Below the pieces are notes generated by a model. It worked only from the letters and a program-made list of their open reading frames with translations, ran no database searches and was not told where the DNA came from. Made by a program: the position numbers and the translations under genes. Source: an uncultured Clostridia bacterium (GTDB lineage Bacteria > Bacillota > Clostridia > TANB77 > CAG-465). Taken from it: 64,000 bases of DNA. The stretch is taken from assembly GCA_947625855.1 (NCBI GenBank), contig CANQPW010000002.1, forward strand, positions 3,472 to 67,471. Reading direction: 5' to 3'. Below, piece after piece: positions 1 to 34,188 of this stretch. Position 1 is the stretch's first letter; each line of letters opens with the position of its first letter.

Positions 1-331
1 CTTCATAATTACTTTTTTTCTTTTTTCTAGTATTTTGTCTAATTTTATTAGGATTAAAATACAAAATATTTTTATTAAGTATTATACCATTTTTATAATA
101 TATTTCTGCAATAACAGATATTAGTTCTTCATAAAATGTATAATTAGAGTCATTTCTAATAACAATATTATAATTTTCAAATTCAATATTACAATCATAT
201 TGTTTTATTACTTTATGATATCTTATAATATTTCTTAATACTTTTTTGTTTTTACTCAATCCAATTGTATTGTCTAATTTACTTAAAATTTCTTCATTTT
301 CTTTATCTAGTAAATCTTCATTTAATTCCAT
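1..331 (-). CDS. Partial CDS (first 110 codons, runs off the window edge): AAA+ SpoVK/CbbX-like N-terminal region with an ablated P-loop
   Basis: ATG at 329-331 (minus) lies 7 nt after AAGGGAG, and the frame is open to position 1. MELNEDLLDK...IGLSKNKKVLRNIIRYHKVIKQ...NIVIRNDSNYTFYEELISVIAEIYYKNGII follows the SpoVK-type pattern, but the Walker A slot (GnPGTGKT) reads RNDSNYTF. It is not in the ORF track because it is truncated. Confidence 0.4.
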   Translation of the reverse strand, partial: MELNEDLLDKENEEILSKLDNTIGLSKNKKVLRNIIRYHKVIKQYDCNIEFENYNIVIRNDSNYTFYEELISVIAEIYYKNGIILNKNILYFNPNKIRQNTRKKKKSNYE

Positions 332-462
332 AATAAAACTCCCTTCTTAATACATAATCTATTATATAATATTAATAGGAGATAGAAAAGATTGGTGGTC
401 ACATATTGCATTGCTAAAGTTTGGTATTTATAGTAATAAAATATATTATATAAGTAGTTTTT

Positions 463-1506
463 TTAATCCTCATTATTATTTAATTTCATTGTTGAAATAT
501 TTTCATCACTAAAACCTAATAGTTTTAAAGTATCCTCTTCATAATAATAAAATTTAGGTTTTTCGAAATCCATTTTAAAATATTCATAAGTATTTATAAA
601 TACTTCAAGATTTTCAATTTTACCTTTTAAGTAATTACTAACTAATTTTAATATACGATTATTTTCTTCTAATATTTCATCATAATATTCAAAACAATCA
701 TAATCCCATATAGTTCCATAAGATAGTTCTGCATTATTTTTAGGTAAATAATAGCACATTCCTGCCATAGATATTTCTCCTAAGTTTCTCATATTAGAAT
801 TTTGTATAGCTTTTTTGTCCCAAATAGTTAAATCATCTAGTACAAATATTGGATTTTCTATGTATTTTAACATCATCTCATTTATTAAAATATCACCTTT
901 TTTAAAAGGAACTGGTAAATTAATAAATAGTTCTCCAATATCACATAAATCATTATGATTTTTTTTAATTTTCGTTAGTTTAATTTGTTGGTTTATAACT
1001 ACATAATCTGCGGAAATTTCCTCATCATTATATAGATATTTTTTTGTAATAGTAAAAAAGTCTATTTCATTATCTTCTTTTATTAAACATTCTACTTTTG
1101 TAAAAACATCTTTATATGTATTATTTGAATATTCTATTACTTTATTTAAAAAGCTATAATGTTTACTATATGTTTCCAATATATATACACAATTTTCTTC
1201 AAATTTTATCATATCACTATATATACATCTTACTCTATCTATCTCATTTTGAATCATTGCTTTTACGCTATAATAATGCTTACAATTAATTCCTTCTCTA
1301 ACTTCCATATCTTGATAATTATATATTAAATCTTGATATTTTTTAATTTTTTCTTCTAAATCCATCTTTTTATTTCTATATACTAAAACTGCAAGTTCCT
1401 CTGTATTAAATTGATATTTTATCTTTCTACAATAATTACTTATTGCTTTTGAATTAATTAAATCGTAGTCATCTAACTTTTTTTTGCTATTTAAACTTTT
1501 ATCCAT
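463..1506 (-). CDS. Hypothetical protein (347 aa), last gene of the FtsZ-like/DnaJ-C/DnaB-C operon
   Basis: Long ORF, co-directional, 43 nt downstream of the DnaB-C-like gene. I recognise no family motif. Confidence 0.6.
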   Translation of the reverse strand: MDKSLNSKKKLDDYDLINSKAISNYCRKIKYQFNTEELAVLVYRNKKMDLEEKIKKYQDLIYNYQDMEVREGINCKHYYSVKAMIQNEIDRVRCIYSDMIKFEENCVYILETYSKHYSFLNKVIEYSNNTYKDVFTKVECLIKEDNEIDFFTITKKYLYNDEEISADYVVINQQIKLTKIKKNHNDLCDIGELFINLPVPFKKGDILINEMMLKYIENPIFVLDDLTIWDKKAIQNSNMRNLGEISMAGMCYYLPKNNAELSYGTIWDYDCFEYYDEILEENNRILKLVSNYLKGKIENLEVFINTYEYFKMDFEKPKFYYYEEDTLKLLGFSDENISTMKLNNNED

Positions 1507-1549
1507 AGTTTTTTATTCCTTTCTTATTATAATAATAAAAATTTTTACT

Positions 1550-2305
1550 CTATAAATCACAAAATCTTAAATGCTCTGGAATCCATTTAAGTTCAATACT
1601 TTCAGATATATTTTCTCTACTTTTAGCTATTATAATATCTGCAATATTTTTTCTTTTTGTTGATTTGTCAAAACAATCTTCTCTATGCAATAGTAAAATA
1701 ATATCTGTATATTTTTCATAATCTATATTATTAGAAGTTAAGTCTTCTAGTGTAGGAATATGATTTTTTCCATGATATACTTTTTTATATGATATATACG
1801 AAGTTACTAAAATTGGAATATTTAGCTCTTGTGCAAGATTTTTCAAGTTGCTTAAAATGCTATTTGTTTCTGCAATTTTACTTTCACCATAACTTATTAA
1901 CTCCAAATAATCAATTATAACGCAAGCTATGTCTTTTTCTTTTTTCATATTTTTAGATTTCTTACAAATTTCTTTTATAGATATTCCAGGTGTATCATCA
2001 ATATATATACTTTCTTTATCTATTTTTTCGTTGATTTTTTTAACTTTAAGTAAGTCAAAATCTTTTAAATCTAAAATATCAGGAGCTTCCATTTCTCCAG
2101 TGATACTAGCAATTTTAGATAATATACTTTCTTTTGAACATTCCAAGCTAAAAAATAGAGCTGACTTTTTATCATTTATAGCAATATTATTCAGTACATT
2201 TAACACAAAACTTGTTTTTCCAACAGAGGCTGTCCCAGCTAATAAAACCAAATCTCCCTGTTTTATTTTTACCATCTCATCTATTTTTTTAAATCCTGTT
2301 TTCAT
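1550..2305 (-). CDS. DnaB C-terminal (RecA-fold) domain-only ATPase, no N-terminal helicase domain
   Basis: KTGFKKIDEM (TGF..lD), Walker A AGTASVGKTS, FSLECS, DDTPGISI and Walker B CVIIDYLELI are collinear with DnaB_C. The SQLSR and RESGxIEQDAD motifs are not conserved (SYISYKK; LTSNNIDYEKYTD). Only 251 aa. Confidence 0.7.
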   Translation of the reverse strand: MKTGFKKIDEMVKIKQGDLVLLAGTASVGKTSFVLNVLNNIAINDKKSALFFSLECSKESILSKIASITGEMEAPDILDLKDFDLLKVKKINEKIDKESIYIDDTPGISIKEICKKSKNMKKEKDIACVIIDYLELISYGESKIAETNSILSNLKNLAQELNIPILVTSYISYKKVYHGKNHIPTLEDLTSNNIDYEKYTDIILLLHREDCFDKSTKRKNIADIIIAKSRENISESIELKWIPEHLRFCDL

Positions 2306-2333
2306 TCTTTATCACTCCTTTCAATAAATACAT

Positions 2334-2678
2334 TTATTTTATAATAATTTCTACAATCAAATTTCCTTCTTCACTATTTTTCCTTGTAGTACTACCAGAG
2401 TTTCTAATAATTATTCTATTGCCACTTTTTACTTTAGGTGGTATTTTTACTGTAATTTCATTACACACTTTGATTTCGGTATTAGAGTTTTCATCATACT
2501 TAATATATTTATACCTGATTTTTTTATTGCATCCATTCAAAGCTTCTTTTTCAGTTATTATACATTTGATATAAATATTATTTTGGTTGCCAAGTAGTTC
2601 CTTTGTACTTTTTTCCTTTATGTTCTTGCCTACAATTTCTTCTAAATCAATATTATCAAACATATTTAAAAACCTCAT
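2334..2678 (-). CDS. DnaJ C-terminal (substrate-binding beta-sandwich) domain-like protein, no J domain and no Zn finger
   Basis: CIITEKEALNGCNKKIRY...ITVKIPPKVKSGNRIIIRNSGS...EEGNLIVEIIIK matches the DnaJ/CbpA CTD pattern l..EA..G..k.i...v.IP.G...G..ir..g.G....GdL.v.i. The same pattern occurs in the CbpA-like gene at 42878-43822. Confidence 0.5.
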   Translation of the reverse strand: MRFLNMFDNIDLEEIVGKNIKEKSTKELLGNQNNIYIKCIITEKEALNGCNKKIRYKYIKYDENSNTEIKVCNEITVKIPPKVKSGNRIIIRNSGSTTRKNSEEGNLIVEIIIK

Positions 2679-2687
2679 CCTTGTAAC

Positions 2688-3266
2688 CTAAATATTTTTA
2701 TCTAATACTTCTTTTATCTTTTTAGCTGCCTCTTTATCTGAAAGTTTAAATGCATTCATTATACTTCTTGAATAACTAAAAGCTTTTTGCAATATTTCTT
2801 CATTTTTTATAACGATTAATTCATCCACACTATTTTGTATTTTTTCGATACAGTTTTTTGCGACATTCATTCGCTTTTTTCCTTCAAATAGAGAAGGGAA
2901 GGTGACAATTGCAATAGTTTTTATTTTTAGCTTATTAGTCAATTTGGCAATTTCTTCAATTTCACCTGTGCCAGTTCCACCACCCAATCCTGCTACTAAT
3001 ATGACTAAGCTTACATCTTCAACTACTTTTTCTATTTCATCTTTACTTATTTCTACAGCTTTTTTTCCCATTTCGGGATTTCCAGAACAGTCTAAACCAT
3101 TTGTAATATTATCTCCTATTAACATTTTCGTGCTACAATTAGAAAAATTAATATCATCTTTATCAGGACTAATAACAAATGTATTTATATCCTCGTAATT
3201 TTCTATATAATTATTAACTATACTAACTCCAGCACCACCTAATGCGATTATTTTAAAATCAACCAT
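2688..3266 (-). CDS. FtsZ-like N-terminal GTPase domain-only protein (192 aa)
   Basis: Collinear with the FtsZ N-domain: IIALGGAGVSIVN (T1), GLDCSGNPEMGKKA (T3), VAGLGGGTGTG (T4 tubulin signature), VTFPSLFEGKKR (T5), ELIVIKNEEIL (T6). It ends inside helix H7, so there is no T7 NxDxxD loop and no C-terminal domain. Start placed at ATG 3266, 7 nt after AAAGGAGA; the track start at 3293 lacks an RBS. Confidence 0.8.
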   Translation of the reverse strand: MVDFKIIALGGAGVSIVNNYIENYEDINTFVISPDKDDINFSNCSTKMLIGDNITNGLDCSGNPEMGKKAVEISKDEIEKVVEDVSLVILVAGLGGGTGTGEIEEIAKLTNKLKIKTIAIVTFPSLFEGKKRMNVAKNCIEKIQNSVDELIVIKNEEILQKAFSYSRSIMNAFKLSDKEAAKKIKEVLDKNI

Positions 3267-3303
3267 TTTTTCATCTCCTTTTTTATATAACATTTCTATA
3301 TTT

Positions 3304-3332
3304 ATTATAATAATTAAATTTCAATATTTCAA
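3304..3332 (-). promoter_or_regulatory. Sigma-A-type promoter of the FtsZ-like operon
   Basis: Minus strand reads TTGAAA, a 17-nt spacer, then TATAAT, about 40 nt upstream of the ATG at 3266. Confidence 0.5.
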
Positions 3333-3360
3333 AGTATTTGGTCATATAATGTATAGCCAT

Positions 3361-3394
3361 AAAAAAATAACTAATACATAAACAATATTAGTTA
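3361..3394 (-). terminator. Rho-independent terminator ending the PD-(D/E)xK/WYL/222-aa unit
   Basis: Minus strand reads TAACTAATA, loop, TATTAGTTA, followed by TTTTTTT, just after the stop at 3417. Confidence 0.6.
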
Positions 3395-3416
3395 CTTTTA
3401 TACAACATAAAAAATT

Positions 3417-4085
3417 TTAACATCTCCAATTTGCAAATGGATATTTATATGATTTACGTTCATCACTGTTTTCAGATACTCTTTTATTATATTCTTGTAG
3501 AAGTAAAGTCTCTAATTTACCTGCCTTCTCATATGCTTTATCACCATTTACATATATCCAAAAAATATATAAATCTTTTCTTTTTTTTTCGTCTATTTGC
3601 CATATAGCTCTTCCACCTTTATGGTTTTGAGCATTTCCAACTCCATATTTCATATATAGGCCTAACCTATTATATAAATCTGAATTTTTTTCTCCACCAG
3701 CTTTACCAATATATAATATTTTTTTCAAATACTCATCTAAATCATTTAAAGTTTTTAATTTTCTTTCCAATTTATCTATACCATATTCATTTCCTATCAT
3801 AAATTGAAATTTAGAATAATTATTCTCATCTTTATAAATATTCTCTATTTCATCTACTACTATATTATCATCTCCAGCATTTATTATAAAATATACCCCA
3901 AATTTTTCACTTTTTTCTTTAAATTTTTCATTAAACTTATTAATTTTAAAAGTATATTTATCTTTTTCTTTTACAATAATATCTGTTAGTTTACATACAT
4001 TTGATTCACCAAGCTCTATATTATTATCTTTTGCATTTTTTTCTATAAACCCTTTTATATTTTCCATAATTTCTTCATGTATCAT
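3417..4085 (-). CDS. Hypothetical protein, possible divergent GIY-YIG-like nuclease
   Basis: FGVYFII ... ILYIGKAGGEKNSDLYNRLGLY ... GGRAIWQ ... KLETLLLQEY resembles GIY / YIG / R / E elements, but about 60 aa separate GVY from YIG. Weak call. Confidence 0.3.
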   Translation of the reverse strand: MIHEEIMENIKGFIEKNAKDNNIELGESNVCKLTDIIVKEKDKYTFKINKFNEKFKEKSEKFGVYFIINAGDDNIVVDEIENIYKDENNYSKFQFMIGNEYGIDKLERKLKTLNDLDEYLKKILYIGKAGGEKNSDLYNRLGLYMKYGVGNAQNHKGGRAIWQIDEKKRKDLYIFWIYVNGDKAYEKAGKLETLLLQEYNKRVSENSDERKSYKYPFANWRC

Positions 4086-4100
4086 TTTAACATTCCCCTT

Positions 4101-5090
4101 TTATTTATATTTTTCATAAGCATTTTTTATTATATCTTTCATTTCTTCTCTTAAATTATCTGGTTTTATAATCGTTAACATATCAAGATTTCTCATAGCC
4201 CATAGTTTAAAACCTATTGGATTAGCATTCAAACTCATTTGAAATGTATCAGAATTTACTGGCTTAATTTTTACTTTTTTGCCAAATCTTTCAATAACTT
4301 CACCTAACAAACACTCATCACATCTTGCTTCTATTTGGACTTCATTTCCACTAAATATTTCAACTGCTGTGTCTGTATATTCTTCAATTTCCTTTTCTGT
4401 TTTGTGTATAGCAATCTTTTGACTTGTTTCTTGTAAATTTTTGATTCTATCTAACCTATAATGAAAAAACTCGTTATTTCCATCTTTAATAGCAAGCATA
4501 TAAAACTGCTGTTTATCATAAATAATAGCATAAGGAGATACTGTTGGTATGCTTACAATTTTCTTATCTATTCTGTCTCCATTTATATAATACTTCCAAT
4601 ATTCAAATCTAATTTTATTTTTATTTAAGATACTATTACTTATATCTTCAATATTTTTTATAACTTCAACATTATTAGTTCTTCCTTTAGGAGAATATAC
4701 TCTATAATTTTTTACCTTTTCATTTTCATATATATTTTGAAGATTTTTACACTTTTTTATTATACCTTTTGCAATTCTTTCTTCTATAAATGTTGAATAA
4801 CTAAATGTATCTATTATTGCTCTGATTTCACCAGGCTCAAAGTCTGTTTCTGGATCATTAGTAATATAATAACCTATTTTATTGTCATTGTATGTACTAA
4901 TATCATAACCAAACTTTTCCTTCAGCAAATTGATATTTCTTCTTATAGTTCTTGGATCAATATCTTCTCCATATACTTCATTTATCTTTTCTTTTAATTC
5001 TGATATAGATAATTTATGTTCTTCATCACTATATTTTTTTAATACATTTAATATGTATAATATATTTCCATTCTTTTCGTATAAATCCAT
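4101..5090 (-). CDS. HTH + WYL + WCX-type transcriptional regulator (BrxR/CapW-like architecture)
   Basis: N-terminal wHTH (ILYILNVLKKYSDEEHKLSISELKEKI...DPRTIRRNINLL). Central WYL region (VSPYAIIYDKQQFYMLA...FFHYRLDRIKNL). C-terminal extension. Confidence 0.8.
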   Translation of the reverse strand: MDLYEKNGNILYILNVLKKYSDEEHKLSISELKEKINEVYGEDIDPRTIRRNINLLKEKFGYDISTYNDNKIGYYITNDPETDFEPGEIRAIIDTFSYSTFIEERIAKGIIKKCKNLQNIYENEKVKNYRVYSPKGRTNNVEVIKNIEDISNSILNKNKIRFEYWKYYINGDRIDKKIVSIPTVSPYAIIYDKQQFYMLAIKDGNNEFFHYRLDRIKNLQETSQKIAIHKTEKEIEEYTDTAVEIFSGNEVQIEARCDECLLGEVIERFGKKVKIKPVNSDTFQMSLNANPIGFKLWAMRNLDMLTIIKPDNLREEMKDIIKNAYEKYK

Positions 5091-5117
5091 ATTACCTCTC
5101 CTATATATTCTTTTAAA

Positions 5118-6590
5118 TTAATTATTTTTTTCACTTTTTATTTCTGCATCTAAAATATTTGAGTCCTCTCTACTTTTTATTACTATTGTATTATTTTCTA
5201 ATTTTCCCTTTATTATCTCTATTATTCCTTTTATAACGTCAAAAGATTTTTCTTCTTCAGCTGGTATATTTATAGTAAAAATATTAATTTCAGGTTGTGT
5301 TTTTGTACTTCCATCACCTGATGGGTTTATTTTATATTTTATATTATTTAAAATTATATTTTCATCTTCAAACAATTTTACAACTTCATTATATATATTT
5401 GTTTGATCAAATTTTTTTGCATAATACTTATTATACAATTTATATACATATTTATTTTCTTTATCATAATATGATATTGGATGATTATCATTTCTTACCT
5501 CAAACTTTTTACCATTTTCTTGTTTGAAATTTTTATTTGATTGTAAATTTTCATACTCTTCTTTATCACTTATCGGTTCCTCTTTTTTTGAAATTCTTAA
5601 CATTATTGTATAATCATTTTTTTTATTATAATATTCTTTTTCATAAAAATTTATTTTTATAAAGGCATAGTTGTTGAACAAATCTGACTTAATTTTTAAA
5701 TTTATTGGTATATTACACCACCATGTTGGTTTATTTCCAGAAGTTGATTTTCCAAAATATACTCGCTTACCACTTGGTACTGATATTTTAATTTTTTTCC
5801 AATCATCTTCTTTTTTCTTTTCTTTTTTTACTCCTATATATTCTTTTTCTACTTCTTCGTCAGAATATCCTTTTTCTTTTAAAAATTCGGTTTCTATTTC
5901 TTTAAAAAAGGAAAAAAATATAATATCCTTTTTTCTTTCTTTATAATCAATAACACTATTTACTATCTTTTTACTTGCACATTCTTCGATAGCCTTTATA
6001 TACTCTAAATAGTCTTTAAAATATTCTTGATTTATATCTTGCTCATATTTTTGTAATAATTCATATATTCCATATATTTTATCATCATCAGCAGATTGTC
6101 TTTTTCTTACATATATACAATCAACTTTTTTTAGATTTATTCCGCACTCATCATAAGGTTTATAATAACAAGTTAATATATCATCTAATTTATCCTTTTC
6201 TATTATATCTTCCTTTTCTATATCATTTTTAAAATTATCTGTAATGCTATCTTTATACCTATCAATTTGTGAATCATGTTCTAATGATTGTACTTTATCC
6301 TCAATTATAATAACCAAATATTTATCTGTTTTTTTGTTATGTATAGATACTAATACATCAATATGATAATATTGTACATCGCACTTTATCTCTATATTAT
6401 CTTCATCACTATCTAAAAACTTAACCCATTCTTCTTTTTCTTTTATAATATTTCGTACAAATTCTTTTGCTAAATTCTTTATATCATTATTTTCCTTATT
6501 TCTTGGAATATTTATCCAATTTACTAACCAAGCTAAAAAAGCATCTTGAGATAGTTCTTTTGTAGCAAATTTAAAAATATTATTTTCCAT
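5118..6590 (-). CDS. PD-(D/E)xK nuclease-superfamily protein with an uncharacterised 250-aa C-terminal region
   Basis: N-terminus FKFATKELSQDAFLAWLVNW, then HIDVLV...YLVIIIEDKVQSLEHDSQIDRY (D...ExK plus Q..RY), typical of stand-alone PDDEXK families. Confidence 0.6.
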   Translation of the reverse strand: MENNIFKFATKELSQDAFLAWLVNWINIPRNKENNDIKNLAKEFVRNIIKEKEEWVKFLDSDEDNIEIKCDVQYYHIDVLVSIHNKKTDKYLVIIIEDKVQSLEHDSQIDRYKDSITDNFKNDIEKEDIIEKDKLDDILTCYYKPYDECGINLKKVDCIYVRKRQSADDDKIYGIYELLQKYEQDINQEYFKDYLEYIKAIEECASKKIVNSVIDYKERKKDIIFFSFFKEIETEFLKEKGYSDEEVEKEYIGVKKEKKKEDDWKKIKISVPSGKRVYFGKSTSGNKPTWWCNIPINLKIKSDLFNNYAFIKINFYEKEYYNKKNDYTIMLRISKKEEPISDKEEYENLQSNKNFKQENGKKFEVRNDNHPISYYDKENKYVYKLYNKYYAKKFDQTNIYNEVVKLFEDENIILNNIKYKINPSGDGSTKTQPEINIFTINIPAEEEKSFDVIKGIIEIIKGKLENNTIVIKSREDSNILDAEIKSEKNN

Positions 6591-6818
6591 TTTCTACTTT
6601 TCCTCCTATTCTTTTTATTTTTCAATACTTTAACCATAGCTAAAATATTTAAAACTTATTTCAAATACTTTTTTAATATTATATCATATTTTTATTTATT
6701 TCAACATTATTGGTCATAAGATGTACTGTTTTATATGATAATAGGATAACTTTTACATTAAAAAAGATTACTAATATCTAATATGTAATTTATATATAAT
6801 AAAAATATAAAAAATTTG

Positions 6819-6925
6819 CAAAAATGTGATAAAATATCAAAAATGTGATGCAAAAATGTGATATATTTTATAATTTTTATTGTAAAAGTGTGATTTGCGT
6901 GATATAATATAGATAAGGGTGATAT
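6819..6925 (+). promoter_or_regulatory. Operator-like direct-repeat array overlapping the promoter of the DUF4143 ATPase gene
   Basis: CAAAAATGTGAT occurs three times exactly (6819-6830, 6838-6849, 6851-6862). Degenerate copies follow: AAAAGTGTGAT (6884-6894), GCGTGAT (6898-6904) and GGGTGAT (6917-6923). TTGTAA-17-TATAAT (6880-6909) has GTGAT copies in its spacer. Confidence 0.6.
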
Positions 6926-6927
6926 TT

Positions 6928-8235
6928 ATGCATAGATATATAAAGGATAAATTAATAGAATGGAAAAATAAAGAAAACAGAAAACCATTAATATTAAAAG
7001 GAGCAAGACAAGTTGGAAAAACATATATATTAAAAGAATTTGGAAAAGAAGAATATGAAAATATTGCATATTTTAACTTTGATCATGATGAAGCATTAAA
7101 AGATTTATTTAAAAATACAAAAGATCCAAAAAGAATACTAGAACAGCTAACTTTTGCAAGTGGAAGTGTGATAAAACCTGAAAAAACACTCATCATTTTT
7201 GATGAAATACAAGAATGTCCAGATGCTTTAAATTCATTAAAATATTTTAATGAAGATGCAAATGAATATCATATCGTTTGTGCAGGTAGTTTGCTTGGAA
7301 TCAGACTTTCTCATACTTCATTTCCTGTTGGAAAAGTAGAATATCTTGAAATGTATCCTATGACATTTACTGAGTTTCTAATTGCAGATGGTTGCCAAAA
7401 TCTAGTAGAATATATGAATTCGATAACTACTATTGAAAAAATACCAGATATTATATTTAACCAATTAAACGAAAAATTAAAATCTTATTTCATAATTGGT
7501 GGTATGCCTGAAGTAGTTAATATCTGGATAAATACTAGAAATATTGAAATGGTAAATGAAATACAACAGCAAATATTAAAAGGATATGAAAATGACTTTG
7601 GAAAGCATACAGAAGGAATAAATAACTATTCAAAAATTTCTATTATATGGGAAAGTATTGTATCTCAGCTTTCTAAAGAAAATAAAAAATTTTTATATCA
7701 AGTAGCAAAAGAGGGAGCAAGAGCTAGAGAATATGAGGACGCTATAAACTGGTTAAATGATGCTAATTTAGTAAATAAAATATTTAACATTACTAAACCA
7801 GATTTTCCACTTAATGCTTATACGGATTTAAGTAGTTTTAAATTGTATATGTCTGATATTGGATTGCTTAGAAGAAAAGCTAATTTAGATTCAAGAATTG
7901 TAATAGAAGGAAATAAGTTATTTGAAGAATTTAAAGGTGCATTAACAGAAAACTATGTTCTAAATATGCTAATTTTTATAAACAACGAAATTCCAAATTA
8001 TTATGTATTTGACAGACATGAAATTGATTTTATAATACAAGAAAAAAATAAAATAGTACCAATAGAGGTAAAATCTGGTAATACTAATAGTTTAACCAAA
8101 TTTAATAGTACGAATGATAATGAAATATCAATTAGATTTTCTACTAATAATTTAGATAAAAGCGGTAAAATCTTAAATATACCATTATTTATGGTAGAGT
8201 ATACAAATAAATTACTTGATATTGCAAACAATTAA
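6928..8235 (+). CDS. AAA-type ATPase of the AAA_14 + DUF4143 family
   Basis: Walker A LKGARQVGKTY, Walker B LIIFDEIQ, typical length and C-terminal DUF4143-like region. Start moved to ATG 6928 behind AAGGGTGA. Confidence 0.75.
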   Translation: MHRYIKDKLIEWKNKENRKPLILKGARQVGKTYILKEFGKEEYENIAYFNFDHDEALKDLFKNTKDPKRILEQLTFASGSVIKPEKTLIIFDEIQECPDALNSLKYFNEDANEYHIVCAGSLLGIRLSHTSFPVGKVEYLEMYPMTFTEFLIADGCQNLVEYMNSITTIEKIPDIIFNQLNEKLKSYFIIGGMPEVVNIWINTRNIEMVNEIQQQILKGYENDFGKHTEGINNYSKISIIWESIVSQLSKENKKFLYQVAKEGARAREYEDAINWLNDANLVNKIFNITKPDFPLNAYTDLSSFKLYMSDIGLLRRKANLDSRIVIEGNKLFEEFKGALTENYVLNMLIFINNEIPNYYVFDRHEIDFIIQEKNKIVPIEVKSGNTNSLTKFNSTNDNEISIRFSTNNLDKSGKILNIPLFMVEYTNKLLDIANN

Positions 8236-8414: not shown

Positions 8415-9293
8415 TTAAGCTTTTACTACACCTGTTAATTTGCCAAGATGTTGATAGCCTTCCAGCCGAATATCTTTTAACTCCTTAGAATTATCAAAAG
8501 CATAAAAGTCATTTACCTCAGGATTGAGCCACAACTTAGGTGCTGGCAAAGCATCTTTTCTTCTTTCTAACATTTTTTCAATTTGCTCAATATGCTCCTC
8601 ATAAATATGTGTATCCACCATGTTATAATGCATTTCAGCAGGCTTAAGCCCAGTTACATGTGCTAACATATATGTCAAGGCTGCATACTGTGTAATGTTA
8701 AATGGAACACCAAGAAAGATATCACATGAGCGTTGCTCTACAAAAGAGTAAAGTTTTCCATCTAATACAAGGAATTGTACCTTATACACACAAGGTGGTA
8801 ACACTGCTTTGTTAAAAAACGGAGGCTGCCACATTGAGATAATATTGCGTCTATCCGCAGGATTGTGCAATATTTTGTAGATAGCTGCATCCATCTGATC
8901 TTCGGCACCTTTTTCACCACCATGAGCAATAATATAACCATAGCTAGTTCCTATGGTACCAGCCCATTCTTTTCCAAAAAAGGTTTCCTGACCATTATCA
9001 GGATTTCGATAAACACCATCTTCGCCGATTTCAAACTTATCCCAAATTTTAATGCCTCTCTTACGTAACCAATCAACATTGATACATTTCTGTTGATAAA
9101 TCCACATCATTTCTAAAATAGCCGTTTTCCAAGCTACCTGCTTAGTAGTGAGAATAGGGAACTCATATGCTAAATCAAAAATCCAATGGTTACCAGCAAT
9201 CCGGTACGTAACACCGTTTCTTGCTTGCGTTTTAACACCGTGATTCAAAATTTTCTCACAGGTATCTAAGTACATTTTGTCAAACTGTGACAT
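8415..9293 (-). CDS. thyA: Thymidylate synthase (ThyA family)
   Basis: PILTTK, LPPCVYKVQF (catalytic Cys), QRSCDIFLGVPFNITQYAAL, DTHIY. Start placed at ATG 9293 behind AAAGGAGAA. Own promoter (TTGACT-17-TATACT) and terminator (8367-8408). Confidence 0.9.
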   Translation of the reverse strand: MSQFDKMYLDTCEKILNHGVKTQARNGVTYRIAGNHWIFDLAYEFPILTTKQVAWKTAILEMMWIYQQKCINVDWLRKRGIKIWDKFEIGEDGVYRNPDNGQETFFGKEWAGTIGTSYGYIIAHGGEKGAEDQMDAAIYKILHNPADRRNIISMWQPPFFNKAVLPPCVYKVQFLVLDGKLYSFVEQRSCDIFLGVPFNITQYAALTYMLAHVTGLKPAEMHYNMVDTHIYEEHIEQIEKMLERRKDALPAPKLWLNPEVNDFYAFDNSKELKDIRLEGYQHLGKLTGVVKA

Positions 9294-9415
9294 ATTTTCT
9301 CCTTTCATTAATTAATGAATAAAAAAAAAGTTAATTGTTACAAAGCGAAGTATACTATAAAAATAGACGTAAGTCAACTAGATATATTAATTTTTGTAGA
9401 AATTTGAAACATAAA

Positions 9416-12587: not shown

Positions 12588-12677
12588 TTTTTCCTCCTTC
12601 TAAATTTTATATCAATAAATTTTATTTATCTTGTAAAGTAATCTAACTTAATAGATTACTTTACAAATTTATTTTTT

Positions 12678-15600
12678 CTACTTAACAATATCTGCATTAG
12701 AATTTAAATGTATACTTGGTAATTCCTCTGGAACTTTAATACGATATGTATCACTTGTTAATCTTTCATTTTCTAATGTTAATGCATTGTCTACACGGTA
12801 TAATTCGGCCCTTACAGTTTTTATAGTTTTATCAGTAAATTGTTTATATATTGGATTTTCTATCTCATTTCCTTTTTCTGGATCATCGATTTGTTCACCA
12901 TTTTCATCAACTATTATTGTTGGCTCTATCCAATAAATCCAAATTCCACCAACTACTTCACCAAGTTCACCGCCATCTTCTACTGGATCTGCATAGAAAG
13001 TTTGAACTCCTGGAATTAGATTGTTATCTTGATCCCATAATTTTAATGCGTTATATGCAGGATTTCCTTTATATATACCTGTAAATATTATTGATCCTTC
13101 TGGAATAACTACTGTATTTCCAGATACATCACTCTTACCTAAAGTTAATTCTTCATCTAATATACCAATTGCATCTTCTAATAAATCAACATTATCACCA
13201 GTTTGACCTAATAAATCGATTTCAGAAATTGATATTTCTTTATCCTTGATAATGAATTTTACATATACAGTATCGTACATATATAACTTATCATCACCAT
13301 CTTTATTAAAGTAAACAGTTTGTGTATTATTTTCATCAAATCCATTACTTAATATATTAGATATTTTTTGTGCAATACCAGTTGATACGCTCTTTACCGT
13401 AGTCCATTCTGTACCATCTATACTTACTTGAACTTCATAATTTTCTAAAGTTTTCTTTGCAGAAGATGTATATTTGAATCCTACTAATCTCTTAGCACCT
13501 TCAAGTGTTATTATAATTTCACCATCTTCATCTTCTGGTTTATTTCCTACATAATCAGTTTTATAATTTCCATCAATTAAATCATCTATTCCTTTTTGTA
13601 ATATTTCAGCATCATCAGCTTTATATTTCGGATCTTCTTCAACCCATTTATCTGAATCAGAAGTTAAGTTAGTTTCAACTACCCAATCTTCTTTTCCACC
13701 TAATGTTCCATCATGTGAAACTTTAATTGGATCTAAAACATATTGTTCAGTTTTTTCTAAGTGTTTATCATAAGCTGTTATCTTGTATGTAAATACTCTA
13801 TTGTTTAATGTATCTATTGTATCAGTATAAGTTAATTTTTCTTCAGTACCATCAGCTGTTACAAAAGCTACTGTATCCGATTTTTCTTCATCATTACTCA
13901 TATATGTTCTTACAATTTCATAACCTAAAATTGCATCTTTATTTTCTGACATATGATTATTTCCAAAAGTAATTACTACTTGATTAGTATTTACTCCAAG
14001 ACTTCTTGTAGCTTCTACTTTTGTATCATCTAGCATTCCTTCTCCACCAGATAATACATATGCTCTTGCCTCATCATTTATATAATAAATTGCTCTATTT
14101 TCATCAGGCCATTGACTTGCATATTTTATAGTATCTTCATCTGGAACCATTCCCCATCTTCTAAAGAACTCTAAAACGTTTTTCTGTGTAGCAGCACAAG
14201 CAAGTCTCATTAAATTATTATCTTTATCATTTGCTGTTAATGTTAAAGCTACACCATCTACTTCTGCCTTTGGAGCTTTAGATGTATCTCTTGCATATGT
14301 ATCCATTCTTGCGAATACATAGCTATCTAATGTTTGTTTATATGTATCATATTTTTTGAAGTTATATCCATTCATATCATATGCTAAATGGAATTGCCAG
14401 TATAATCCTAATTGAGTAAATACATTTTGCGCTTTACCAACTTTACCTGAAGTTACTTTCTTATATACTTCTGGATAACTAAATCTTACAGAATCATTTG
14501 TATCTTCAGCTTGTGCAAGTACAGAGAAGAAATTGTTAGTTACCTCACCATGTACATATGCCTGTTGATTTATAACGTGTCCTATTTCATGGGCAATACC
14601 CCATCCAAAATAATTACCACTTTCGTATTTACCAAATTCATCTGTAACTATTGGATTTCCTTGTGAAAGTAATTGTACTTCTGGCCATTCAATTCCTATA
14701 TGAGCTCCACCAGCGTACATAAATGCTCTACCTGACATTCTCATATAACGTATATTCAATCTACTTCTTGGATATATATTTTTACTTCCTGCATCCTTTG
14801 CAGATTCACTTAAACCTTTATTTGCATAGAATAAATCAATCATATCATCCATAGCTTCTATTGAATCATATAATTTTTTAGCTTTATCTGCTGTATTACC
14901 GTTACCTAAACCTGCAAGAATTTGTTTTGCAGAAACAGAATACATAATATGATCCATTACTATTTCAGTTGCTCCAAGAATACAGTTAGTTTCATTATTT
15001 TCAGAACCTATTGTTCCATATTTTGCTTCGCCATATGATTCTCCTGCTTTAACGCAAATATCATCATGACTATCAGCAATAGTTGTCATTAAATCTTCTA
15101 CATTTTCAATATATTCAGTAATTGCAGACATTTTTGCGTCTTCTGTATTTTCAACTTTTGTTAAATCAAGAACAGGTATTTCATGTCCACCTTCAACTCT
15201 TACGCCATAATATTTTTCAAAGCTCTTAAATGGATCATCATCTTTAAGTCCTGTATAATTAATATATAATGAACCACCTTTTTCAACATCAAACTTAAAC
15301 AATTCAGGAATTGTAACTACATTTTTACCTACTTTTAGGTTCTTAACAAGAACTGTTTGCCAATTTGAAGCATATCCATGATATTGTGTTGCAATAAGTT
15401 GTAAGTTAGTTGATTGACCTACATCTTTATATTCATTACCTACATATATTGTTACTGTATCTCCTGCATGTGCAACAACTCCTAATGGTTGCCATGCATT
15501 CATACCACTATTTTTAAATTCTATATGATTATCATAAAATGCTGTTACTGCATCATCTATTTTAATAGTATTACACATTTTTGAACCATTTACATATAGA

Positions 15601-18362
15601 TTTTTTGCTTCATTTATTTCTACTAATAATTTTTCTCTTTCTGGATGATATTCACCAGTTGCTTCATCTACTTCATTTACTTTAGCTTCTAAAGCTTCTA
15701 TATCTGATAATAATACATCACTTCTTAATTTTACATGCATTTGATCTTCATACAATGCATTTATTTTATCTTCTAAATCATCATAATAGTAGAAATTAAT
15801 TTCTGCTATTGTTATTTTATTATTACCCATATCTGCCCTACCAACATTAACAGATATCTTTTTAGCATTTATTGGATTTGGTAATTTAATAACTGTATAA
15901 TTATGTCCATCTTTATCTTGTCTTGTATATACTTGAGATGCTCTTGATTCTCCTCTTTTACCATTATTGTCATAATATACAATATTTGCAAAATTTAAAG
16001 ATCCAGTCCACTCAGCTTGTGCTACTGTAATATAATCAATTTTATACTCATTATCAAATTCTACTGTTGGTCCTTTTTCTCCTGTATACCATCCACCTAA
16101 ATCCCAGTCATTTACTTGGAAGAATGAGAAGTAACTATTATCAACAATACCTTGAGCTGTTTCTTGACCTTCATCTAAAGGACTGTCTACCATAAATCTC
16201 TTAGCACCATCTTTATTAAATTTAACATTTAATATATGATCTGTTAATACTCCATCACCTTTTGATGTATTTATTAAATTACGTTTTGGCATATCTACTG
16301 GTAAAACTGCTGTTGTTTCAGCTGTACCTATATTAGATTGTGGACTTGAGCCATGATCATTTTTAGCTATTACATATGCTTGATATTTTGTTTTCTCTTT
16401 TAAATTACTAATTCTATATGAACCACTTGTTACATTATCTGCAGCAAGTATAAATTCTCCAGTTTCTTTTTCTCTGTACCAAACTTCATAAGTATCTGCT
16501 CTAGGATCTAAATCCCAAGAAACAATTACTTCTTTATATGCACCAACAACAGATACACCTGTTGGTTTATTAGGTACACCATTAGCAGTTGGTATAGCTA
16601 CAACTGGTGGTTCACTATAACCGCTAAACCATTCTCCATTTACTGAACGAACACTAATTTGATATTCAGTTGGATTTCCATTTGTTTTTAATAAATCTTT
16701 TATTGCTTTTCCGTTGAAGTTCTCAATTGTTAACATATGACCATCTACAAGATGAGTTTCTGATACACCGTTTGAAATAATTAATACTTCATATCCTGTT
16801 ACATTTGGAACATAATTCCAAGAAATTGTAATTTGTTCTTCTGTAACATCTGCTGTTACACCACTTGGAATACTTAATTCTGGTTCAGGAATTTTATCAC
16901 TCATTCCATTTAAGAATTCAACTTTTGCTATATCAGCTAATTTATTGCTTTTTGTTCCTGTTACTTTTATTGTTATTTTCTTTACAGCTACTTTACTACC
17001 TAAATTAACAACAATAGTACCATCAGCATTAAAGTTAACAACACCTTCTGGTGCAACTTCACTTGCTACATTTGCCATTGTAGCTAATCTATATGCAGCT
17101 GCTATATTATATCTATTTGATATAGCTTTAGCAACTGGTTGTTCTTCTTCTGTTTTATTTATAACACATTCTATTTCTTTTTCTTCGCCATCTACTATAC
17201 CAGTAACAATAATTGTTCCTTTTTCTATATTATTTTCAGGATGTATAGATGGAGCTATTGTAATTACTTCTGTTGGAACTTCTTGATTTTCCATATTTAA
17301 TGAAATTTCAACAGGATGTTCATCACTTATATCTTCACCACCTGCAGGTTGCAAAGTAACATAATTTTCATTATTTCTTAATATATCTTCTACTGTTGCT
17401 TCACCAACTAATACTGTTTCCTCTGGTACATCTATTTCTGTTTCCTCTATTACAATATTAGCTATATATGATGGCAAAGCACCAATAAATGTTCCGTTTT
17501 TGTTAATTGCTGCATATGATAAATCAACTATATCTACAAATCCATCCCCATTAAAGTCATATAAATAAGAGTCATTATTAGATTTTTCTTCTATCTTTTC
17601 TATTAATGCATTTACATCAATATCATCAACTGATTCATCATTATTAACATCACCAACTTGAACAATACCATATTTATCTCTTACATTGTTATCATTTAAG
17701 TTTAACATATCATAACCATTTGTAAAACTTAATTCAGTTGTTGTATGTTCTTTAATTATAATTTCTTTTTGACTATATAATACATAACCTTTACCAGAAA
17801 CAGTTAAAATATATTCACCTGGTTCTAGTTCTGTAAAAGTATAATAAAGTTTTGTGTCATTTCCTTCACCTTTAGAAAATACTGGAGCAAACTTTACACT
17901 TTCATTTCCTTTTTTTACAAGATAAACATTTAAATTTGCTTCTTTTTGTGGAAATCTTAAATCAATATTAATATATAATTTTCCACTTTTTGATGCATCA
18001 GACATTTCTAATTCATTTTCAGATACTGACATGATTGATACTGGTATTTGTTCTTCAAATTCTTCCGGCTCAACACTACTAGTATCATCATTTTCATTTA
18101 TTTCTTCATTTTCTGCATCAACATTTTCATATACTATGTTATCATCACCTGTAACAGTATTAGATGTTTCAATATCACTAATTTCTTCTTCAGCGTCTTT
18201 TATTTCTTCATATACCTCATTGTTTTCAGTGATTTCTTCTACTACTTGTTGTGTTTGATTTCCATCATCAGTCATCACAGCTGCTACAAGTACAGACATA
18301 TCCTGAAACATCATTGTAAATATAATACTAATTACAACAATAAGCTTTAGTGTTTTTCTCAT
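12678..18362 (-). CDS. Secreted 1894-aa multidomain M60-like (enhancin-type) zinc metallopeptidase with dockerin, FN3 and discoidin-like modules
   Basis: Signal peptide. Dockerin double Ca-loop GDVNNDESVDDIDVNALI...YDFNGDGFVDIVDLSYA (nt 17502-17654). FN3-like PSGVTADVTEEQITISWNYVPNVTGYEV. Zincin motif WGIAHEIGHVINQ (HEIGH at nt 14576-14590) with downstream GEVTNNF. Confidence 0.8.
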   Translation of the reverse strand: MRKTLKLIVVISIIFTMMFQDMSVLVAAVMTDDGNQTQQVVEEITENNEVYEEIKDAEEEISDIETSNTVTGDDNIVYENVDAENEEINENDDTSSVEPEEFEEQIPVSIMSVSENELEMSDASKSGKLYINIDLRFPQKEANLNVYLVKKGNESVKFAPVFSKGEGNDTKLYYTFTELEPGEYILTVSGKGYVLYSQKEIIIKEHTTTELSFTNGYDMLNLNDNNVRDKYGIVQVGDVNNDESVDDIDVNALIEKIEEKSNNDSYLYDFNGDGFVDIVDLSYAAINKNGTFIGALPSYIANIVIEETEIDVPEETVLVGEATVEDILRNNENYVTLQPAGGEDISDEHPVEISLNMENQEVPTEVITIAPSIHPENNIEKGTIIVTGIVDGEEKEIECVINKTEEEQPVAKAISNRYNIAAAYRLATMANVASEVAPEGVVNFNADGTIVVNLGSKVAVKKITIKVTGTKSNKLADIAKVEFLNGMSDKIPEPELSIPSGVTADVTEEQITISWNYVPNVTGYEVLIISNGVSETHLVDGHMLTIENFNGKAIKDLLKTNGNPTEYQISVRSVNGEWFSGYSEPPVVAIPTANGVPNKPTGVSVVGAYKEVIVSWDLDPRADTYEVWYREKETGEFILAADNVTSGSYRISNLKEKTKYQAYVIAKNDHGSSPQSNIGTAETTAVLPVDMPKRNLINTSKGDGVLTDHILNVKFNKDGAKRFMVDSPLDEGQETAQGIVDNSYFSFFQVNDWDLGGWYTGEKGPTVEFDNEYKIDYITVAQAEWTGSLNFANIVYYDNNGKRGESRASQVYTRQDKDGHNYTVIKLPNPINAKKISVNVGRADMGNNKITIAEINFYYYDDLEDKINALYEDQMHVKLRSDVLLSDIEALEAKVNEVDEATGEYHPEREKLLVEINEAKNLYVNGSKMCNTIKIDDAVTAFYDNHIEFKNSGMNAWQPLGVVAHAGDTVTIYVGNEYKDVGQSTNLQLIATQYHGYASNWQTVLVKNLKVGKNVVTIPELFKFDVEKGGSLYINYTGLKDDDPFKSFEKYYGVRVEGGHEIPVLDLTKVENTEDAKMSAITEYIENVEDLMTTIADSHDDICVKAGESYGEAKYGTIGSENNETNCILGATEIVMDHIMYSVSAKQILAGLGNGNTADKAKKLYDSIEAMDDMIDLFYANKGLSESAKDAGSKNIYPRSRLNIRYMRMSGRAFMYAGGAHIGIEWPEVQLLSQGNPIVTDEFGKYESGNYFGWGIAHEIGHVINQQAYVHGEVTNNFFSVLAQAEDTNDSVRFSYPEVYKKVTSGKVGKAQNVFTQLGLYWQFHLAYDMNGYNFKKYDTYKQTLDSYVFARMDTYARDTSKAPKAEVDGVALTLTANDKDNNLMRLACAATQKNVLEFFRRWGMVPDEDTIKYASQWPDENRAIYYINDEARAYVLSGGEGMLDDTKVEATRSLGVNTNQVVITFGNNHMSENKDAILGYEIVRTYMSNDEEKSDTVAFVTADGTEEKLTYTDTIDTLNNRVFTYKITAYDKHLEKTEQYVLDPIKVSHDGTLGGKEDWVVETNLTSDSDKWVEEDPKYKADDAEILQKGIDDLIDGNYKTDYVGNKPEDEDGEIIITLEGAKRLVGFKYTSSAKKTLENYEVQVSIDGTEWTTVKSVSTGIAQKISNILSNGFDENNTQTVYFNKDGDDKLYMYDTVYVKFIIKDKEISISEIDLLGQTGDNVDLLEDAIGILDEELTLGKSDVSGNTVVIPEGSIIFTGIYKGNPAYNALKLWDQDNNLIPGVQTFYADPVEDGGELGEVVGGIWIYWIEPTIIVDENGEQIDDPEKGNEIENPIYKQFTDKTIKTVRAELYRVDNALTLENERLTSDTYRIKVPEELPSIHLNSNADIVK

Positions 18363-30964: not shown

Positions 30965-30975
30965 AGTTATCACCT

Positions 30976-31062
30976 CAAAAAAACCAAGCACATAGAGTAT
31001 AATGCTTATTGCTGCTTCCTTCCGGATCTGACAAGGTTCACACCTCTCTATTGCTTGGCATA
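30976..31062 (-). ncRNA. ffs: Signal recognition particle RNA, short 4.5S-type hairpin
   Basis: The minus strand contains GUCAGAUCCGGAAGGAAGCAGC (SRP domain IV). The ends GCCAAGCA..UAGAG pair with CUCUA..UGCUUGG. T7 run at the 3' end. Promoter TTGAAT-17-TATAAT immediately upstream. Classic position before dnaX. Confidence 0.85.
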
Positions 31063-31105
31063 TGTACATTATACATTATTAATTTAATAAATTCAAGATA
31101 TTTTC

Positions 31106-34146: not shown

Positions 34147-34188
34147 ATACTTTCCTCGCATTCTAAAATATTATAAAAATATAATATT

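Follow-up and report, generated by a model that had tools for sequence, protein, structure and literature searches.

FtsZ filaments grow at their bottom end, the one that exposes the T7 loop, and an incoming monomer docks there by its GTP-bound, pre-organised top surface (PMC8936486). FtsZ mutants with a damaged bottom interface are toxic (PMC8936486), and those of Redick 2005 and Du 2018, as cited in PMC8936486, are toxic through capping of the growing end. SulA, MciZ and T7 Gp0.4 inhibit FtsZ by occupying its T7-loop face (PMC13423816), while plant ARC3 is an FtsZ-derived protein that directly inhibits assembly of the FtsZ ring (PMC12232670). Divergent members of the FtsZ/tubulin superfamily that do without the canonical C-terminal domain, FtsZl1 and FtsZl2, are also on record (Makarova & Koonin 2010; PMC2875224). 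In the literature we found no description of a natural truncated or N-domain-only FtsZ, nor of a decoy cassette composed of fragments of housekeeping proteins. Here we discuss a protein that appears to be of this kind. It is encoded at 2688..3266 on the minus strand of a 64-kb stretch of DNA (the window, contig CANQPW010000002.1) from an uncultured Clostridia bacterium. This protein of 192 amino acids (aa), which we call FtsZ-N, is a stand-alone FtsZ N-terminal GTPase domain with helix H7, and we tentatively suggest that it may inhibit FtsZ.

With canonical FtsZ (TIGR00065; PF00091 plus PF12327) FtsZ-N shares the Rossmann-like GTPase domain, the T1-T6 elements and H7, at 35-37% identity to the known structures and a template-modelling (TM) score of 0.93. 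Unlike canonical FtsZ, it has no T7 loop, C-terminal subdomain, linker or C-terminal peptide; its T2 and T3 have been remodelled, H7 is charged on its cleft side, and its score is half the family cut-off. The gene starts with the ATG at 3266, with an AGGAG ribosome-binding site 8 nucleotides (nt) upstream, and stops with the TAG at 2690..2688. Residues 5-160 match the Pfam Tubulin/FtsZ GTPase domain PF00091 (E=1e-32, above the gathering score). Of the 353 positions of the NCBIfam ftsZ model (TIGR00065) only 20-203, that is the N-terminal half, are covered. The score of 161.6 bits is below the curated cut-off of 295, so FtsZ-N does not classify as a canonical-FtsZ equivalog. When phmmer is run against the PDB, all FtsZ chains match at about 1e-34 (E=4e-34), and residues 4-184 align with residues 11-191 of M. 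tuberculosis FtsZ. An AlphaFold2 model built with the alignment of relatives as input has a predicted local distance difference test (pLDDT) score of 89.8. All top matches of this model in Foldseek are FtsZ (for 1w5f, TMq 0.93 and root-mean-square deviation 1.5 A over 191 columns). The PF00091 match, the G-box GGGTGTG and the Foldseek TM of 0.93 place FtsZ-N in the FtsZ/tubulin superfamily. It is not assigned to TubZ or PhuZ: Tubulin_2 (PF13809) gives only E=0.029, below threshold, and RepX gives E=0.005 against 1e-34 for FtsZ. An initial annotation of this DNA had described the protein as an FtsZ N-terminal domain and nothing more, and had proposed superposing a predicted structure on FtsZ. 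The Pfam match, the half-length NCBIfam match and the superposition of the model all agree with that description.

The motifs named in the initial annotation lie where it put them: T1 GGAGVSI (10-16), T3 GLDCSGNP (57-64), T4 GGGTGTG (95-101), T5 FPSLFEG (123-129) and T6 IKNE (153-156). However, T3 is not the clean match that it was taken for, since D59 stands at an invariant Gly. The claim that the protein stops before the T7 loop and has no C-terminal domain is borne out. The final element of the model is the helix 169-191, which is H7, and the protein terminates at the end of this helix, about 5 residues short of the T7 loop. In an alignment with full-length FtsZ, all members of the family end with ...IKEV(L/I)DKNI, opposite the canonical ...SITDLIT and before G-x-I-NVDFADV. 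The T7 synergy loop NxDxxD is absent, and a Pfam scan of FtsZ-N gives no match to the C-terminal subdomain PF12327. Because the T7 loop and the entire bottom face are missing, FtsZ-N cannot polymerise alone. The reading frame at 2334-2678, which the initial annotation had rightly found unlike FtsZ, encodes a fragment of the DnaJ C-terminal domain, DnaJ-C.

Helix H7 itself tells something about the history of this protein. In FtsZ of S. aureus (SaFtsZ), H7 contributes V189, Q192, G193, Q195, G196, D199 and L200 to the lining of the interdomain cleft (PMC8456036). At these positions FtsZ-N has E179, K182, K183, K185, E186, D189 and K190, nearly all of them invariant in the family. To judge from these residues, the face of H7 that points toward the missing domain is turned charged and compatible with solvent. 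This would be expected of a protein that has long lived as a stand-alone N-domain.

The family is small and uniform. About 10 homologues of FtsZ-N are present in a large protein database, 69-84% identical and all 189-198 aa long; their carriers are metagenome-assembled genomes of uncultured Clostridia from rabbit gut. The intact open reading frame (ORF) occurs in at least 10 independent assemblies with a common end column. In a hidden Markov model scan of 1.84 billion cluster representatives the family forms a single 50% cluster, clearly apart from ordinary FtsZ. The pairwise ratio of nonsynonymous to synonymous substitution rates (dN/dS) is 0.27-0.37, with dS of up to 0.42, and the promoter and ribosome-binding site of the gene are kept across related loci. 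As far as this pattern goes, FtsZ-N is a functional, long-established stand-alone N-terminal domain under purifying selection. A frameshifted full-length ftsZ is ruled out, because the FtsZ C-terminal domain is undetected in every frame of the window (best tblastn E = 0.89). A downstream frame coding for the T7 loop, which the initial annotation had named as the mark of an artefact, is accordingly not there.

We also considered whether a reassigned or read-through stop codon could join FtsZ-N to the DnaJ-C gene behind it. The two lie in one frame with a single TAG between them in the window and in three related loci (L006, L007 and L008), but not in two others (L002 and L003). All three stops, TAA, TAG and TGA, are used in long ORFs of the window, whose G+C content is 25.7%. 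A fusion is not conserved, because the frames differ in L002 and L003, and we rejected it; the shared frame is probably due to chance. DnaJ-C of the window is 98% identical in nucleotides to those of L007 and L008, whereas the adjoining FtsZ-N is only 88-89% identical, a mosaic that suggests recombination between variants of the cluster.

Several other short or high-scoring FtsZ matches were set aside. One short 'FtsZ' (P0042) comes from a frameshift-ridden assembly and was rejected as a relative; another (P0021) is an archaeal protein of 238 aa in an unrelated context. Four long, high-scoring matches (P0166, P0167, P0171 and P0185) are tandem double FtsZ proteins and not relatives. The closest full-length FtsZ (P0015) is from other samples, with no tie to the host established. 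A scan of JGI metagenomes gave only ordinary FtsZ at no more than 37% identity. In INPHARED there are only matches of about 35%, which are ordinary FtsZ in contaminated records. IMG/VR and PLSDB hold no relative of FtsZ-N, and neither does PHROG have a match. A phage or plasmid origin of FtsZ-N was rejected on the grounds that these viral and plasmid collections are without relatives. The same absence from PHROG and from viral sequences leaves the suggestion of a phage tubulin as target, made in the initial annotation, unsupported.

What might such a protein do? FtsZ-N is the top face of FtsZ and nothing else. It would therefore be a natural ligand of the T7 face, and it should cap filament ends or sequester monomers. 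Since FtsZ grows at the end that exposes T7, capping makes mechanistic sense. The reading that we rank first, while giving it somewhat less than an even chance, is that FtsZ-N would be an inducible, homologue-derived inhibitor of FtsZ in a co-regulated cassette of mimics. By analogy with the precedents for WYL regulators discussed below, the trigger would be DNA damage or infection, upon which the cluster would be induced. The top face of FtsZ-N would then dock on host FtsZ, either at the growing filament end, where T7 is exposed, or on monomers. Once docked, it would leave the next subunit no surface, so that assembly of the Z-ring would be blocked. The outcome would resemble that of SulA, MciZ and T7 Gp0.4, but would be reached through mimicry of FtsZ itself. 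A capper had already been predicted in the initial annotation. That part gains from the folded, top-face-only domain and from its agreement with the published mechanics; the intact nucleotide face that was assumed with it is weakened by the substitutions described below. The term 'plus' face that was used for the nucleotide face does not apply, as this is the top face and not the kinetic plus end (PMC8936486). We infer FtsZ binding, capping, inducibility, the role of the WYL protein as regulator and the purpose of the cluster.

The closest parallels help to see what is particular here. Both the bottom-face mutants and isolated N-domains resemble FtsZ-N in having the top face present and the bottom face defective; in the hands of Oliva (2004) and of Osawa and Erickson (2005), the isolated N-domain of FtsZ reportedly folds and binds nucleotide. 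Those, however, are laboratory constructs of a cell's own FtsZ, whereas FtsZ-N is a natural, diverged paralogue in which residues contacting T7 are changed. With SulA, MciZ and T7 Gp0.4 it would share the target, the T7-loop face, and the effect, sequestration or capping. They are unrelated small proteins, whereas FtsZ-N is a half-copy of its proposed target. ARC3 differs in being eukaryotic and in having an FtsZ-like, a middle and a MORN domain, under the control of MORN and ARC6, so that it does not amount to a neat truncation to the N-domain. FtsZl1 lacks the T6-H7 part and has a coiled coil and an alpha-helical C-domain (PMC2875224); FtsZ-N, by contrast, has T6 (IKNE) and H7 and nothing beyond.

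A number of observations weigh against an FtsZ inhibitor. To begin with, FtsZ-N is only about 35-43% identical to any full-length FtsZ, and a dN/dS of about 0.3 is far looser than a precisely tuned interface would predict. Residue conservation was judged against 84 canonical FtsZ sequences. FtsZ-N retains 36 of the 54 canonically conserved positions, among them R132 (R143 of SaFtsZ), E128, N155, F173 and D177; the window copy thus keeps the equivalents of R143, N166, F183 and D187 together with the G-box. Remodelling affects the 'crosstalk' region, which would face the T7 loop of a neighbour. T2 is SPD in the window and SP(D/N) in the family, where canonical FtsZ has NTD. T3 is remodelled to GL(G/D)C(F/S)(G/A)NP in the family, in place of GLGAGANP, and D59 of the window copy replaces a T3 Gly that is conserved in 84/84 canonical sequences. 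The equivalent of SaFtsZ D46 is Asn in 7 of 10 members, although Asp in the window copy, and the equivalent of Q48 is Asp, Asn or Ser in all members and never Gln. In SaFtsZ itself D46A abolishes assembly, while Q48A lowers GTPase activity 6-fold and stabilises polymers. These changes could mean either of two things: a long-lived, hydrolysis-resistant cap or a ruined interface. Moreover, private substitutions are found at six near-invariant positions among ten close relatives, and the G-box itself varies (AGGTGTG in P0002-4 and GGGNGTG in P0005). Private substitutions in the GTP site point to relaxed constraint on GTP binding, and suggest that nucleotide binding by FtsZ-N may not be strictly required. 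Finally, the near-consensus -35 and -10 elements of P2, the promoter of the FtsZ-N unit described below, make strong constitutive expression possible, which is hard to square with a toxic capper.

FtsZ-N does not stand by itself. The cluster to which it belongs spans positions 1..6726 of the window, with all genes on the minus strand and a WYL regulator among them, and it contains further essential proteins as truncated or dead copies. We pieced its layout together from the window and seven related loci (L002, L006, L007, L008, L011, L021 and L024). There are three units. The first consists of a PD-(D/E)XK_4 (or DUF2779) nuclease, a helix-turn-helix (HTH)-WYL regulator and a GIY-YIG nuclease. 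The second runs from FtsZ-N through DnaJ-C and DnaB_C to one or two copies of a protein called X. The third is a SpoVK/CbbX-type AAA+ ATPase, with a small membrane protein behind it in other loci. The cargo varies by locus, and FtsZ-N and DnaJ-C are constant companions.

DnaJ-C, a fragment of DnaJ C-terminal domain I (2334..2663, minus strand, 109 aa from the ATG at 2663), matches Pfam DnaJ_C (4e-9) at model positions 4-71 of 152; its NCBIfam DnaJ/CbpA matches are partial. It has no J domain, zinc finger or dimerisation domain and is thus reduced to the substrate-binding C-terminal domain I. It follows directly behind FtsZ-N in every locus, with a gap of 17-25 nt, and its dN/dS is about 0.26-0.3. 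In L021, a variant without FtsZ-N, a DnaJ_C fragment of 137 aa (4492-4905, plus strand) is the first gene behind an upstream TGACCA-box promoter of the type described below, which makes the DnaJ fragment a part of the system independently of FtsZ-N. Next comes DnaB_C (1550..2305, minus strand, 251 aa), the RecA-like C-terminal domain only (Pfam DnaB_C 3.6e-52). It aligns with residues 187-441 of G. stearothermophilus DnaB, the N-terminal domain being absent. It retains Walker A and B, the catalytic Glu and the Arg finger, while SQLSR and RESGxIEQDAD, the predicted DNA-binding motifs, are gone. DnaB_C is missing from L002 and broken in L011.

The X protein (463..1506, minus strand) has 347 aa and no assigned fold. 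In related loci a homologue makes up the C-terminal 340 aa of a fusion with a PolC fragment; the fusion of L008 (12847-15108, plus strand) is 753 aa long, and X is 88% identical to its residues 415-753. The X family, about 340 aa long and without a Pfam model, comprises more than 147 clusters, and its members stand alone or are fused to DnaB_N, DnaB_C or PolC fingers. Its AlphaFold2 model (pLDDT 84.5) has no fold match in the PDB or BFVD, and no relative was found in phage or plasmid collections (IMG/VR, INPHARED and PLSDB). Homologues in other Firmicutes sit in integrase-bearing elements. Besides the fusion, L008 has a further family member at 11718-12815, and P0073, P0077 and P0088 also belong to the family; the copy X' is split in L002 and L007. 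The PolC part of the fusion covers only PolC residues 853-934 and 1123-1389. About 190 aa of the palm core and the thumb are deleted, and PEIV occupies the place of PDxD, which we take to be the catalytic aspartates of Pol III alpha. Neither the window nor L006 has the PolC fragment. As far as their sequences tell, the DnaB, PolC and DnaJ copies of the cluster are non-catalytic and not enzymes.

Of the AAA+ ATPase only the 5' part (1..331, minus strand, ATG at 331) is in the window, as the gene extends past the window start. This N-terminus is 73-87% identical to AAA proteins of 530-555 aa in related loci, and the orthologue in L008 matches NCBIfam spore_V_K at 2e-75. On the other side of FtsZ-N, the regulator unit opens with the PD-(D/E)XK_4 nuclease-family protein (5118..6590, minus strand, 490 aa; Pfam PDDEXK_4 4.6e-5), which is also a weak match (1.7e-9) to the PADLOC candidate PDC-S26. 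The HTH-WYL transcription regulator (4101..5090, minus strand, 329 aa; Pfam WYL 1.4e-9 plus HTH, PADLOC WYL 3e-21) adjoins the cassette in all variants of the cluster and has a dN/dS of 0.10-0.22. The sequence of the GIY-YIG-type nuclease (3417..4085, minus strand, 222 aa) shows the motifs GIY, YIG, R, E and N; for its L008 orthologue the matches are Pfam GIY-YIG (2e-4) and the N-terminus of UvrC (1e-4). This nuclease evolves fast, with a dN/dS of 0.6-1.2 and 29-69% identity where the WYL genes are 80-88% identical. Sequence searches of the PDB with the WYL, PD-(D/E)XK, GIY-YIG and DnaJ-C proteins gave no match. PADLOC-DB 2.0 has no match for FtsZ-N, DnaJ-C, X or the GIY-YIG protein; its matches in the cluster are to WYL, weakly to PDC-S26 and, for the AAA ATPase, weakly to IetA/TRIP13-like proteins.

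Each unit has a promoter of its own, and the three have a common design. The FtsZ-N promoter, P2 (3304..3354, minus strand), is composed of the box ATACATTATATGACCA at 3354..3339, a -35 TTGAAA at 3332..3327 and a -10 TATAAT at 3309..3304. This TTGAAA-17-TATAAT arrangement is the best sigma-70-type match in 7 kb (11/12), and both P2 and the 16-mer ATACATTATATGACCA upstream of it are kept in all five related loci. Ahead of the regulator unit lies P1 (6678..6726, minus strand), with the TGACCA box GTACATCTTATGACCA at 6726..6711, TTGAAA at 6704..6699 and TATAAT at 6683..6678. Ahead of the ATPase gene lies P3 (361..411, minus strand), in which the box ATGCAATATGTGACCA at 411..396 is followed after 29 nt by TATAAT at 366..361, with no good -35. 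A common 16-bp TGACCA box, RTRCAWYWTRTGACCA, thus stands 27-29 nt upstream of TATAAT at three cluster promoters. TGACCA-N26-31-TATAAT occurs 3 times in the 64-kb window against 0.25 expected, and all three occurrences are in the cluster, on the coding strand and ahead of the three units. In L002, L021 and L024 an equivalent of P1 stands ahead of the opening gene of the regulator unit, and the P3 layout precedes the AAA gene in L002, L006, L007, L008, L019 and L021. L002 carries three TGACCA-box sites, the box is also present in L006-L008 and L030, and the same layout comes back in every variant of the cluster, those without FtsZ-N (L019, L021 and L024) included. On an unrelated contig, a TGACCA box precedes both P0168, an N-only FtsZ that is distant at 40% identity, and the gene behind it. 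Between the GIY-YIG gene and P2 there is an AT-rich hairpin with a T-run (3360..3402, minus strand; 17-nt arms, 88% complementary), a likely intrinsic terminator. It aligns, T-run included, in related loci, and it likely ends the transcription unit of the two nucleases and the WYL gene.

The HTH-WYL protein of the cluster most probably controls the TGACCA-box promoters; it is the candidate regulator, on the assumption that it binds the box. Precedents are the WYL activators that turn on division inhibitors upon DNA damage (DriD acts on DidA, and DdaA on AciT) and the WYL repressors BrxR and CapW, which control phage defence. In DriD-dependent promoters the site lies at a fixed distance from the -10 element (PMC13004042). 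P3, with no good -35 and with its box at a fixed distance from -10 as in DriD promoters, fits an activator model. The arrangement resembles DriD-didA, DdaA-aciT, BrxR and CapW in having an HTH-WYL gene beside the genes in question, a binding-site-like box at a fixed distance from -10 and a candidate division inhibitor as cargo. It differs in that the sequence of the TGACCA box is unrelated to the DriD site, and its cargo of mimic fragments, X and a SpoVK-like AAA ATPase matches no described WYL regulon or defence system.

If FtsZ-N acts as a poison subunit, the other fragments might act likewise. The dead or truncated copies of DnaB, PolC and DnaJ would be poison subunits or competitors of the replisome and the chaperone, and the two nucleases and the AAA ATPase would be the enzymatic part of the system. 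The cluster suggests a switchable jam of division and DNA replication. It is doubtful, though worth entertaining, that the whole of it holds: an inducible set of dead, truncated copies of essential proteins, serving as poison subunits or stand-alone decoys together with nucleases and an AAA ATPase, expressed from TGACCA promoters under WYL control, with FtsZ-N as the first natural homologue-derived capper of bacterial FtsZ.

Beyond the cluster, the window is chromosomal DNA with at least one conjugative-element gene. A divergently transcribed ATPase of 438 aa (6919..8235, plus strand) matches the PADLOC candidate PDC-S01 at E=1.7e-171. This ATPase and the PDC-S26-like nuclease lend the region a defence-island flavour. 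Further along are genes for thymidylate synthase (8415..9308), for a surface protein of 1894 aa with M60 peptidase, dockerin and F5/8 domains (12678..18362), for DnaX (29453..31069) and for a type IV secretion system coupling protein of the TraG/VirD4 type (32092..34161), all on the minus strand.

The defence flavour leads to a different suggestion. FtsZ-N and the other fragments could be baits that mimic the targets of phages or mobile elements, and either soak up inhibitors or report the attack to the nucleases and the AAA ATPase, as in effector-triggered immunity. A WYL protein, two nucleases and an AAA ATPase together, with PDC-S26 and PDC-S01 candidates nearby, are what one might expect in such a case. 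Every mimic is non-catalytic, the fusions of X to DnaB_N, DnaB_C and PolC fragments resemble integrated decoys, and relaxed constraint on the GTP site would suit a purely shape-based role. It is proven, moreover, that FtsZ in complex with a phage inhibitor triggers immunity through CapRel-Ebc (PMC13423816). A decoy role is attractive for the cluster taken as a whole. It fits FtsZ-N itself poorly, because the inhibitors whose binding sites are known, SulA, MciZ and T7 Gp0.4, all attach to the T7-loop/C-terminal face, and this face is missing from FtsZ-N; a bait for such inhibitors should rather consist of the opposite half. Among the PADLOC models there is no match for FtsZ-N, DnaJ-C or X, and no phage trigger is known. 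On balance we regard a bait as unlikely.

FtsZ-N could also have left its FtsZ-related role altogether and become a nucleotide-binding or scaffold part of a complex, with DnaJ-C and/or X as partners together with the AAA ATPase. The surface that the missing C-domain lays bare might, for instance, be covered by DnaJ-C, which stays next to FtsZ-N, unlike DnaB_C and the PolC fragment, whose presence varies. The remodelling of T2 and T3, the loops that contact T7, would be understandable under these circumstances, as would the family motif GTGE(I/V)(E/T)EI where canonical FtsZ has GTGAAP. Further N-only families of constant length (P0172, P0178 and P0222), one of them with GGGFGTG, point in the same direction. 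However, the face of H7 that such a partner would occupy is charged and looks solvent-exposed, not like a hydrophobic docking site, and most residues that contact the base and the phosphates are still FtsZ-like. Such an exaptation is therefore not a probable explanation either.

A mobile-element origin of components of the cluster is plausible. Counterparts of the DnaB_C-only protein and of the AAA ATPase occur in phages (phrog_243 and phrog_4339), the X homologues of other Firmicutes sit in integrase-bearing elements as noted, the mosaic identities hint at recombination, and the chromosomal position of the cluster differs: it is next to rpoBC in L002, thyA in the window and ftsX in L021. That the cluster as it stands is the remnant of an element, or a satellite-type one, with FtsZ-N as a gene for host takeover or partition, is nevertheless quite improbable. 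Within 10 kb of the cluster no integrase, capsid or conjugation gene was found at any locus, FtsZ-N and X are without relatives in the viral and plasmid collections, and an FtsZ without T7 cannot form a partition filament. Nor is the cluster a replication module, because its helicase and polymerase copies are dead. Least probable by far is a decaying pseudogene or an assembly or sequencing artefact: genes are indeed split or missing in places (X' in L002 and L007, DnaB_C in L011), changes at invariant GTP-site residues are scattered and P0042 is truly a frameshifted assembly, but the same intact ORF of 189-198 aa recurs in at least 10 assemblies at a dS of up to 0.42 and a dN/dS of about 0.3, its promoter and ribosome-binding site are conserved, H7 has been adaptively polarised and no remnant of the C-domain is left in any frame of the window.

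We know other examples of short FtsZ-like proteins that consist of the N-terminal part only. One (P0172), with the G-box GGGFGTG, is 222 aa long and has 117 members, on contigs of up to 373 kb. Another (P0178, 198 aa) has the same end position in H7 as FtsZ-N. A third (P0222) is 197 aa long, and the fourth (P0168) is a protein of 213 aa on a 1.4-kb contig. With at least four further N-only families of constant length, the phenomenon may reach beyond this lineage.

If an FtsZ inhibitor is the right reading, and FtsZ-N caps or sequesters FtsZ, it would be the natural version of the bottom-face mutants that were used to define the polarity of the filament. It would also be a new bacterial way of stopping division, with a half-copy of the target itself. 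The context weighs more than the single protein. A co-regulated cluster of crippled copies of FtsZ, DnaB, PolC and DnaJ is unmatched in the catalogues of defence and DNA-damage response that we searched; it may be categorically new, with a function that we infer. With such a cluster one can test whether bacteria employ fragments of their own core machinery, as dominant negatives or decoys, in a regulated device for arrest or immunity.

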